Origin: a virus
Lineage: Duplodnaviria; Heunggongvirae; Uroviricota; Caudoviricetes
Length of the DNA: 5,832 bases
IMG/VR virus record: IMGVR_UViG_2534681772_000006
Location: 1 to 5,832 of that record
Direction: 5' to 3' (one strand)
The translations under genes and the position numbers were made by a program. The first letter of the stretch is position 1. Every line of letters begins with the position of its first letter. Of the stretch, positions 3 through 498 are shown in pieces. Under the pieces are notes generated by a model that was not told the origin of the DNA, did not search any database, and saw only the letters and a program-made list of their open reading frames with translations.

Positions 3-176
3 GAGGTAATACACCGTAAGAGCTGGAAAAACCGGACAGAAGTGGAACTGGCCACACTCACGTGGGTGGACTGGTATAACAATCGACGATTGCTGGAAAG
101 GCTGGGCCATATCCCACCGGCAGAAGCAGAAAAAGCTTATTATGCTTCCATCGGAAACGATGATCTGGCAGCCTGA
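3..176 (+). CDS. IS3-family transposase OrfB (DDE integrase), C-terminal fragment; N-terminus lies upstream of the window
   Basis: Frame 3 translates to [57 protein letters not shown] with stop TGA at 174..176. I recognise this from memory as the C-terminal tail of IS629/IS1203-type OrfB. It is not in the supplied ORF track because it has no start codon in the window. Confidence 0.85.
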
Positions 177-191
177 GTTCACAGATAAAAC

Positions 192-218
192 ACTCTCCAG
201 GAAACCCGGGGCGGTTCA
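192..218 (+). repeat. Right terminal inverted repeat (IRR) of the IS629-like element
   Basis: The reverse complement of 192..218 is TGAACCGCCCCGGGTTTCCTGGAGAGT, which matches 5427..5453 (TGAACCGCCCCGGGAATCCTGGAGACT) at about 23 of 27 positions. Exact inner boundary of the repeat is uncertain. Confidence 0.7.
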
Positions 219-498
219 GAATGTGTTCGTTAAGGAGCGGGATGTTGTTGAATGTAGATGCTGCTTTGGCTAACTCTTTCGGGTCACGAAGCAGGTAGTA
301 AAACTTGTCAGGCTGTAAACCTAGCGATCTGTAATTAGGGATTTCACGCCCATAATAAGGGCAAACGTTAGCCTTACTGATTGGCGTCACTTCGATATGC
401 AAACGCCCATCCTTATCAAAGGAGCGCACCGTTGCCTTGTCGAATGCCAATCCGTGATATCCCCATTGCCAGTCGCCTTTAACTTTGCGTAATGGCAT
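219..498 (-). pseudogene. 5' portion (93 codons) of a phage head-module gene of unknown function, truncated at its 3' end by the IS insertion
   Basis: ATG at 498..496 is preceded by AAAGG about 8 nt upstream. The reading frame runs without a stop across the IS junction at 218/219 and ends only inside IS sequence at 58, so the last ~53 codons of the 146-aa track ORF are IS-derived. The native part is [93 protein letters not shown]. Its position after portal and MuF suggests a scaffold, protease or other head-assembly protein; I cannot place the family with confidence. Confidence 0.6.

Follow-up and report, generated by a model that had tools for sequence, protein, structure and literature searches.

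The 5832-bp stretch of DNA analysed here (the window; positions 1 to 5832 of IMG/VR record IMGVR_UViG_2534681772_000006) joins an IS629-family insertion sequence (IS) to a DUF2213 gene of an Escherichia coli prophage. It is very likely that an IS629-family insertion inactivated this gene, which is predicted to encode a head protease/scaffold protein, leaving a 5′ stump with an accidental tail. The analysis itself shows where the junctions lie, what the two partners are, how long the gene is when intact and which fold the family domain has. The window consists of three parts: an IS end at 1-218 (plus strand), a block of phage late genes at 219-5429, all on the minus strand, and an IS start at 5427-5832 (plus strand), with bases 5427-5429 (TGA) common to the IS end and the phage sequence.

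Junction between the IS end and codon 94 of the DUF2213 gene

The phage block was compared by BLAST with the intact prophage of enterotoxigenic E. coli (ETEC) TW10590 (NZ_CP035850.1, 2757372-2775853; locus L001). Window positions 219-5429 matched L001 9001-14211 in one alignment with 0 gaps and 2 mismatches in 5211 nt (99.96% identity), and by reading of the sequences both mismatches leave the proteins unchanged. The identity ended exactly at 218/219 on the left and at 5426-5429 on the right. The TW10590 prophage has the same gene order (gp49-family, small terminase TerS, large terminase TerL, portal, MuF, DUF2213), but it has no IS at either site and its DUF2213 gene is complete, encoding a protein of 408 amino acids (aa) (WP_029397851.1, ‘DUF2213 domain-containing protein’). 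The 408-aa gene was found uninterrupted in four E. coli genomes, TW10590 and three more, in agreement with the original prediction, made from the sequence alone, that the native C terminus had been lost. That prediction had proposed an alignment to an uninterrupted prophage, which placed the insertion point in codon 94 and located structural genes 3′ of DUF2213 in TW10590: a cement protein (E217 gp24/XM1 gp53 family), the major capsid protein, DUF4054, neck, DUF3383 sheath-type and tail genes.

The minus-strand open reading frame (ORF) at 58-498 encodes 146 aa, from an ATG start to a TGA stop at 58-60. Its start is the RefSeq ATG of the intact gene (L001 9280, window 498). From there 280 nt are of phage origin, enough for 93 codons and 1 nt more, so that the break falls between the first and second bases of codon 94. 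With the sequence CAC ATT C|TG AAC (H I L N) across the break, the ORF has 93 native and 53 IS-derived residues. The boundary at 218/219, predicted to be crossed in frame, was borne out both by the end of identity to TW10590 at 218 and by this C|TG junction, and the predicted 93 phage codons and about 53 IS residues were exact. The stump matched Pfam PF09979 with E=9e-14 (52.2 bits, cut-off 22) over profile positions 1-68 of 167, the intact allele scored 169 bits over positions 1-167, and 947 of the 1227 nt of the gene are missing from the stump. Given the DUF2213 match and the RefSeq start, codons 1-93 represent the genuine beginning of a gene and not a chance ORF.

Antisense to the IS, the 53-codon tail passes first the inverted repeat and then the 3′ end of orfB. 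The ORF had been predicted to end inside the repeat and the transposase 3′ region; the stop at 58-60 and the antisense course through orfB were as predicted, but the ORF crosses the repeat (194-218) and does not end within it. Antisense reading into the IS end meets a stop after 0, 12 or 52 codons, depending on the frame, and shuffling the IS end produced an open run of at least this length in 14% of cases. Therefore, the tail is a frame accident, and the chimeric ORF is a pseudogene by-product and no new gene. The exact 146-aa protein had no record in an index of 153 billion gene positions. Neither junction was found in 5426 complete E. coli genomes, PLSDB plasmids or INPHARED phages, nor in exact-pattern scans of GTDB species representatives, IMG/VR and JGI metagenomes.

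Homologues of the intact protein were 386-441 aa long in 119 of the 120 best database matches, the exception being a 307-aa record labelled partial (P0116). None ended near residue 93, where the original prediction had allowed that a complete gene might stop, and the short ones were fragments or a split gene. Among sequenced phages, 703 records had a homologue, at no more than 55% identity; the closest came from temperate phages of Klebsiella and from Aeromonas phage vB_AsaM-56, and the listed matches reach query residues 392-407. Short matches to the stump (74-147 aa) were mostly on very short contigs or had divergent tails. The match P0009, which lies on a long contig, represents the first part of a gene split by a frameshift, and a 366-aa ORF of the same Pfam family follows it directly. 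A search with the stump favours candidates of similar length, so that only short fragments were returned, as was also the case with a fragment of gp24 of Pseudomonas phage Pa193 as the query. A natural short DUF2213 protein was considered and rejected, since the short entries are contig-end fragments or the frameshift-split gene.

The IS sequence to the left of the break reads ...CCCGGGGCGGTTCA, with its final base at 218. The complete copy on plasmid p948 of ETEC H10407 (L002 305-1614) is 1310 bp long, and the window contains nt 1093-1310 of this element at 1-218 and nt 1-406 at 5427-5832, each 99.5% identical to it. Relative to the annotated IS629 of the Stx2-converting phage 1717, identity over the 624 visible nt was 96.4% (window 1-218) and 97.3%, within the isoform convention of at least 95%; these values cover the ends of the element only, its central 686 nt lying beyond the window. 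The terminal repeats are imperfect and of the form 5′-TG...CA-3′, with the left repeat (IRL) TGAACCGCCCCGGG (5427-5451) and the right repeat (IRR; 194-218) matching at 23 of 25 positions. The orfA product matched Pfam HTH_Tnp_1, an A6 run lies at the end of orfA, and the Rfam ALIL pseudoknot (RF01497) scored 64.6 bits, where the gathering score is 50. Taken together, the two ends show the IS3-family arrangement of orfA (HTH), orfB (DDE/rve) and a -1 frameshift/pseudoknot, and by its sequence the element is an IS629 isoform.

Predicted function of the DUF2213 protein and consequence for the prophage

The original prediction had guessed at a scaffold, protease or capsid-related gene, and this guess agrees with the gene position between MuF and the cement and major capsid genes, with the PHROGs assignment and with the fold model. 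In PHROGs, the intact allele (E=9e-173) and the stump (E=1e-46) matched phrog_2229, ‘head maturation protease’. Alignments divided the protein into three parts: a conserved N-terminal domain (approximately residues 17-195), a coiled-coil linker that is charged and of low complexity, and a C-terminal region that is helical and conserved. An AlphaFold model of the domain, made for a stand-alone member of 175 aa (P0135) with an alignment over the enterobacterial and Pbunavirus-like clades, had a pLDDT of 80.6 and a pTM of 0.74. Its best match was the T4 prohead protease gp21, followed by herpesvirus assemblins, and Foldseek independently ranked 5jbl first with a probability of 0.97; the domain model has the prohead serine protease gp21/assemblin fold. 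Neither Pfam, searched at E≤10, nor NCBIfam connected DUF2213 with any named family of proteases.

His92 is invariant, Ser144 is nearly invariant and a GNH motif with His174 is present in every full-length sequence, although the clades are only 21-25% identical. The herpesvirus assemblin class uses His-Ser-His in that order, and by analogy His92, Ser144 and His174 may be the catalytic residues. The C-terminal 200 residues are predicted, with modest confidence, to be helical, and this region is probably a scaffold. The best reading of the models is that DUF2213 proteins are gp21-like prohead proteases fused to a scaffold-like C-terminal part.

The only solved relative is Pa193 gp24 (PDB 9B40 chain G), a member of the same Pfam family, in which PF09979 is labelled Pa193_gp24 in a newer Pfam release. 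Its N-terminal domain aligns with E=1.4e-5, including the EH, LS and GNH motifs, and its gene likewise lies before the cement and capsid genes; it differs in being approximately 21-25% identical and 478 aa long, and the C-terminal regions have no significant alignment. Residues 286-326 of Pa193 gp24, within its C-terminal region, form a helix-turn-helix pentamer beneath the capsid vertices, and it has been called a putative scaffolding protein (PMC11456595). The fold found here refines that label and supports a protease-scaffold fusion for DUF2213/Pa193 gp24 proteins. T4 gp21 and the herpesvirus assemblins (PDB 5JBL, 1VZV, 8J3S) have no detectable sequence similarity to DUF2213 proteins (6-17% identity in structural alignments), and unlike them the DUF2213 protease domain is fused to a long coiled coil and a C-terminal region. 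In transposon sequencing (Tn-seq) of Burkholderia cenocepacia, the N-terminal DUF2213 domain of the hypothetical gene BCAM1066 was listed as a ‘putative essential domain’ (PMC8770471). This listing is odd for a phage head protease, and polarity or toxicity effects may explain it.

The stump ends one residue past His92 and is without Ser144, His174, the linker and the whole C-terminal region, keeping approximately 40% of the protease domain. The truncated DUF2213 gene has almost certainly lost its function, and its product is probably unstable. A prophage with only this copy of DUF2213 should be without mature heads; this defect is expected because the gene sits by the MuF, cement and capsid genes and because relatives act in procapsid assembly and maturation, as does T4 gp21 (PMC9958956). 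The failure of head assembly foreseen in the original prediction is in this way supported by the class of the gene and the residues lost.

The proposed mechanism starts from a lambdoid E. coli prophage of the contractile-tail type, almost identical to that of TW10590, whose DUF2213 gene of 408 codons received a 1310-bp IS629-family element by transposition within codon 94. The insertion would leave the native promoter context, the ribosome-binding site and the first 93 codons, and translation would then continue antisense over the IS inverted repeat for 53 codons to the first stop. The product would be inactive, so procapsid assembly and maturation would fail. A second IS in the same orientation would cut the gp49-terminase-portal-MuF block from the lysis genes and the late promoter, and the prophage would have been hit at least twice.

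The possibility that the 146-aa chimera is instead a selected functional product, such as a dominant-negative protease fragment directed against head assembly of related superinfecting phages, was also considered. The chimera keeps the native start, the ribosome-binding site and the segment with His92, and the Burkholderia N-terminal DUF2213 sequence is reported to be insertion-intolerant (PMC8770471); however, the Burkholderia case keeps the whole domain, whereas under half of it is kept here, the tail is a frame accident, and the chimera is a single occurrence, absent as an exact protein from the gene-position index and as a junction from the complete E. coli genomes. A functional chimera is, on this evidence, extremely improbable.

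Several points weigh against the interpretation of an inactivating insertion in a head protease gene. The homologue on which the protease fold was modelled shares only about 21% identity with the protein encoded here, and the full-length model of a close homologue, made from an alignment of 20 close homologues, was poor (pLDDT 44). The sole experimental observation on DUF2213 proteins is that of the Pa193 gp24 C-terminal helix-turn-helix inside the capsid. Furthermore, the outer flanks of both IS copies, where a target-site duplication would lie and which would tell a simple insertion from an IS-mediated deletion or rearrangement, are beyond the window.

The second IS copy and the origin of the junctions

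The right IS piece starts at 5427, 27 nt upstream of the start codon of the gp49-family gene, at a site that in TW10590 is intergenic, between this gene and the lysis cassette. As the two IS pieces point the same way, direct repeats bracket the 5.2-kb block. The 3 bp of the inner flanks differ (GAA and GCT), and the two ends of the block are 5.2 kb apart in the intact prophage. Because the flanks are GAA and GCT, one simple insertion does not account for both ends. A circular molecule with a single IS was rejected as well, given that GAA and GCT are no duplication and that the phage ends are 5.2 kb apart in the intact prophage.

Each IS copy could be a simple insertion, with the rest of the prophage beyond it, or the two IS ends could be a single repeat collapsed by the assembler. 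Simple insertion predicts ...CAGCAGTAACCG(GAA)|TGAACCGCCCCGGG on the left and ...GGGGCGGTTCA|(GCT)TGATTAGGATG on the right, each with a 3-4 bp duplication. The same predicted outer junctions can be written as ...CAGCAGTAACCGGAA|TGAACCGCCCCGGG on the left, leading into DUF2213 codons 94-408, and as ...GGGGCGGTTCA|GCTTGATTAGGATG on the right, leading into the lysis genes.

It is quite possible, if short of probable, that IS-mediated deletion or recombination between IS copies, and not simple insertion, made the junction. The 3′ three-quarters of DUF2213 and the capsid, neck and tail genes would then be gone from the site and the block would be an IS-bracketed remnant; alternatively, recombination between two direct IS copies could have excised a circle, with the block as its unique part. 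The two IS ends in direct orientation that bracket the block and the GAA and GCT inner flanks favour such an event, as does the frequency of rearranged flanks in O157 strains, in which matching 3-4 bp duplications were present at only 21 of 47 IS629 sites and 62% of IS629 copies were in prophages (PMC3271280). Therefore, simple insertion and rearranged outcomes are both common. The window contains no evidence contrary to deletion or recombination. All six ORFs of the block are open, with 2 substitutions in 5211 nt, and this pristine state argues that the events were recent, which fits either origin. The phage block may by now be no more than a remnant bracketed by IS copies; insertion on the one hand, and deletion or recombination on the other, give the same truncation and the same chimeric ORF.

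We consider it very unlikely that the block is a retained, intact DNA-packaging module, mobilisable between IS copies or hijacking the capsids of related helper phages, with the stump perhaps interfering. The six open ORFs and the 2 differences in 5211 nt are compatible with such a module, but recent insertions are the simpler explanation. When the gp49-family protein was looked up, all contexts returned were P22/Sf6-like and unrelated. In one of them, locus L010, an IS3-family element also lies upstream of gp49, but its orientation is reversed and its spacing differs.

We also weighed whether the junction is an artefact of assembly or of chimeric reads, with the gene in reality intact. The window begins and stops in a multicopy repeat, as is typical of short-read contigs, and neither junction recurred in the 5426 complete E. 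coli genomes or in the other collections. Against this, both junctions lie exactly at the terminal nucleotides of the IS (TGAACC..., ...GGTTCA), as transposition gives and unlike a random misjoin, and there is only a very small chance that the phage/IS junction is artefactual.

Returning to inactivation by an IS629-family insertion, the ORF at 58-498 is to be annotated as an IS-disrupted pseudogene of a predicted DUF2213 head protease/scaffold and not as a hypothetical protein, and the prophage is to be scored as defective and struck by the same IS at least twice. The exact junctions could mark strains of a lineage that carries IS629, is probably ETEC-like and is related to TW10590.

Gene content of the window and comparison with known systems

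The features of the window are given in Table 1.

Table 1. Features of the 5832-bp window, with coordinates, strand and basis of assignment.
Feature	Position	Strand	Basis
IS629-family (IS3 family) 3′ end, IS nt 1093-1310	1-218	+	99.5% to 1310-bp copy, ETEC H10407 p948
orfB C terminus	codons in 3-173, stop 174-176	+	Pfam rve_2/rve_3 match
Right terminal inverted repeat (IRR), ends ...GGTTCA at 218	194-218	+	23/25 bases complementary to IRL 5427-5451
Chimeric ORF, 146 aa (93 native DUF2213 residues and 53 antisense IS residues)	58-498	-	Exact protein absent from index of 153 billion gene positions
Predicted DUF2213 prohead protease/scaffold 5′ stump, codons 1-93 plus 1 nt	219-498	-	100% to L001 9001-9280
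Terminator-like GC hairpin and T-run, between small ORF and DUF2213 start	527-542	-	Pattern scan only
Unannotated 30-aa hydrophobic ORF; gene status uncertain	544-636	-	Open in four relatives, non-synonymous changes
MuF/SPP1 gp7-type head morphogenesis gene; RefSeq start at window 1319	633-1451	-	Phage_Mu_F E=3e-14; TIGR01641; L001 annotation
Portal protein gene, 511 aa	1372-2907	-	Pfam Phage_portal_3 E=8.5e-92
Large terminase gene	2907-4433	-	Pfam Terminase_6N and Terminase_6C; terL in L001 annotation
Small terminase gene	4381-4914	-	Pfam Terminase_2 E=9e-24
Gp49/Sf6 gene 66 family, first gene of block	5020-5400	-	PF13876 E=3e-35; 97-98% nt identity to Sf6 gene 66 region
Second IS629-family piece (second copy or other end), IS nt 1-406	5427-5832	+	99.5% to L002 305-708
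IRL	5427-5451	+	Within the IS piece 5427-5832
orfA	5481-5807	+	Within the IS piece 5427-5832
Frameshift pseudoknot	5762-5832	+	Within the IS piece 5427-5832

The ATG of the 30-aa hydrophobic ORF overlaps the MuF stop (ATGA), and the ORF is followed by the terminator-like hairpin and then by the DUF2213 start. It is still open in four related prophages, with several non-synonymous changes close to its C terminus. The 511-aa portal protein (L001 10154-11689) is named in RefSeq either ‘anti-CBASS protein Acb1 family protein’ or ‘DUF1073 domain-containing protein’, depending on the genome; given the Phage_portal_3 match and the portal position, the family label Acb1 seems misleading.

The head module from terminase to DUF2213 had no close match among isolated phages at the megablast level, with the gp49 region as the exception. 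A mosaic boundary lies in 4909-5429, where only the gp49-family gene and its flanks, as far as the start codon of TerS, share 97-98% identity with Sf6, IME10 and many P22-like prophages. At least 80% of the head module was present in 19 of the 5426 complete E. coli genomes, and it was near-identical only in TW10590.

The same head module is broken in further E. coli genomes by IS21-family elements, namely by IS100 in the portal gene of STEC299 and by ISEc12 in terL of IGC_RcoliRes_1.1 (hits H116, NZ_CP022279.1, locus L015 2966-3082, and H123, NZ_CP054662.1). Therefore, IS disruption of this prophage type recurs with different elements. The event described here is ordinary, well-documented IS-mediated inactivation of a prophage, and its partners are 99.5-100% identical to known sequences. 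The closest known cases are those of IS629/IS1203 in E. coli prophages, such as the late region of phage 1717 and O157 Sakai, which involve the same element family, share the preference for prophage DNA (PMC3271280) and likewise disrupt a phage morphogenesis region. The present case differs from them in its target gene, DUF2213, in the type of prophage, and in its isoform, which is closest (99.5%) to copies on ETEC plasmids.
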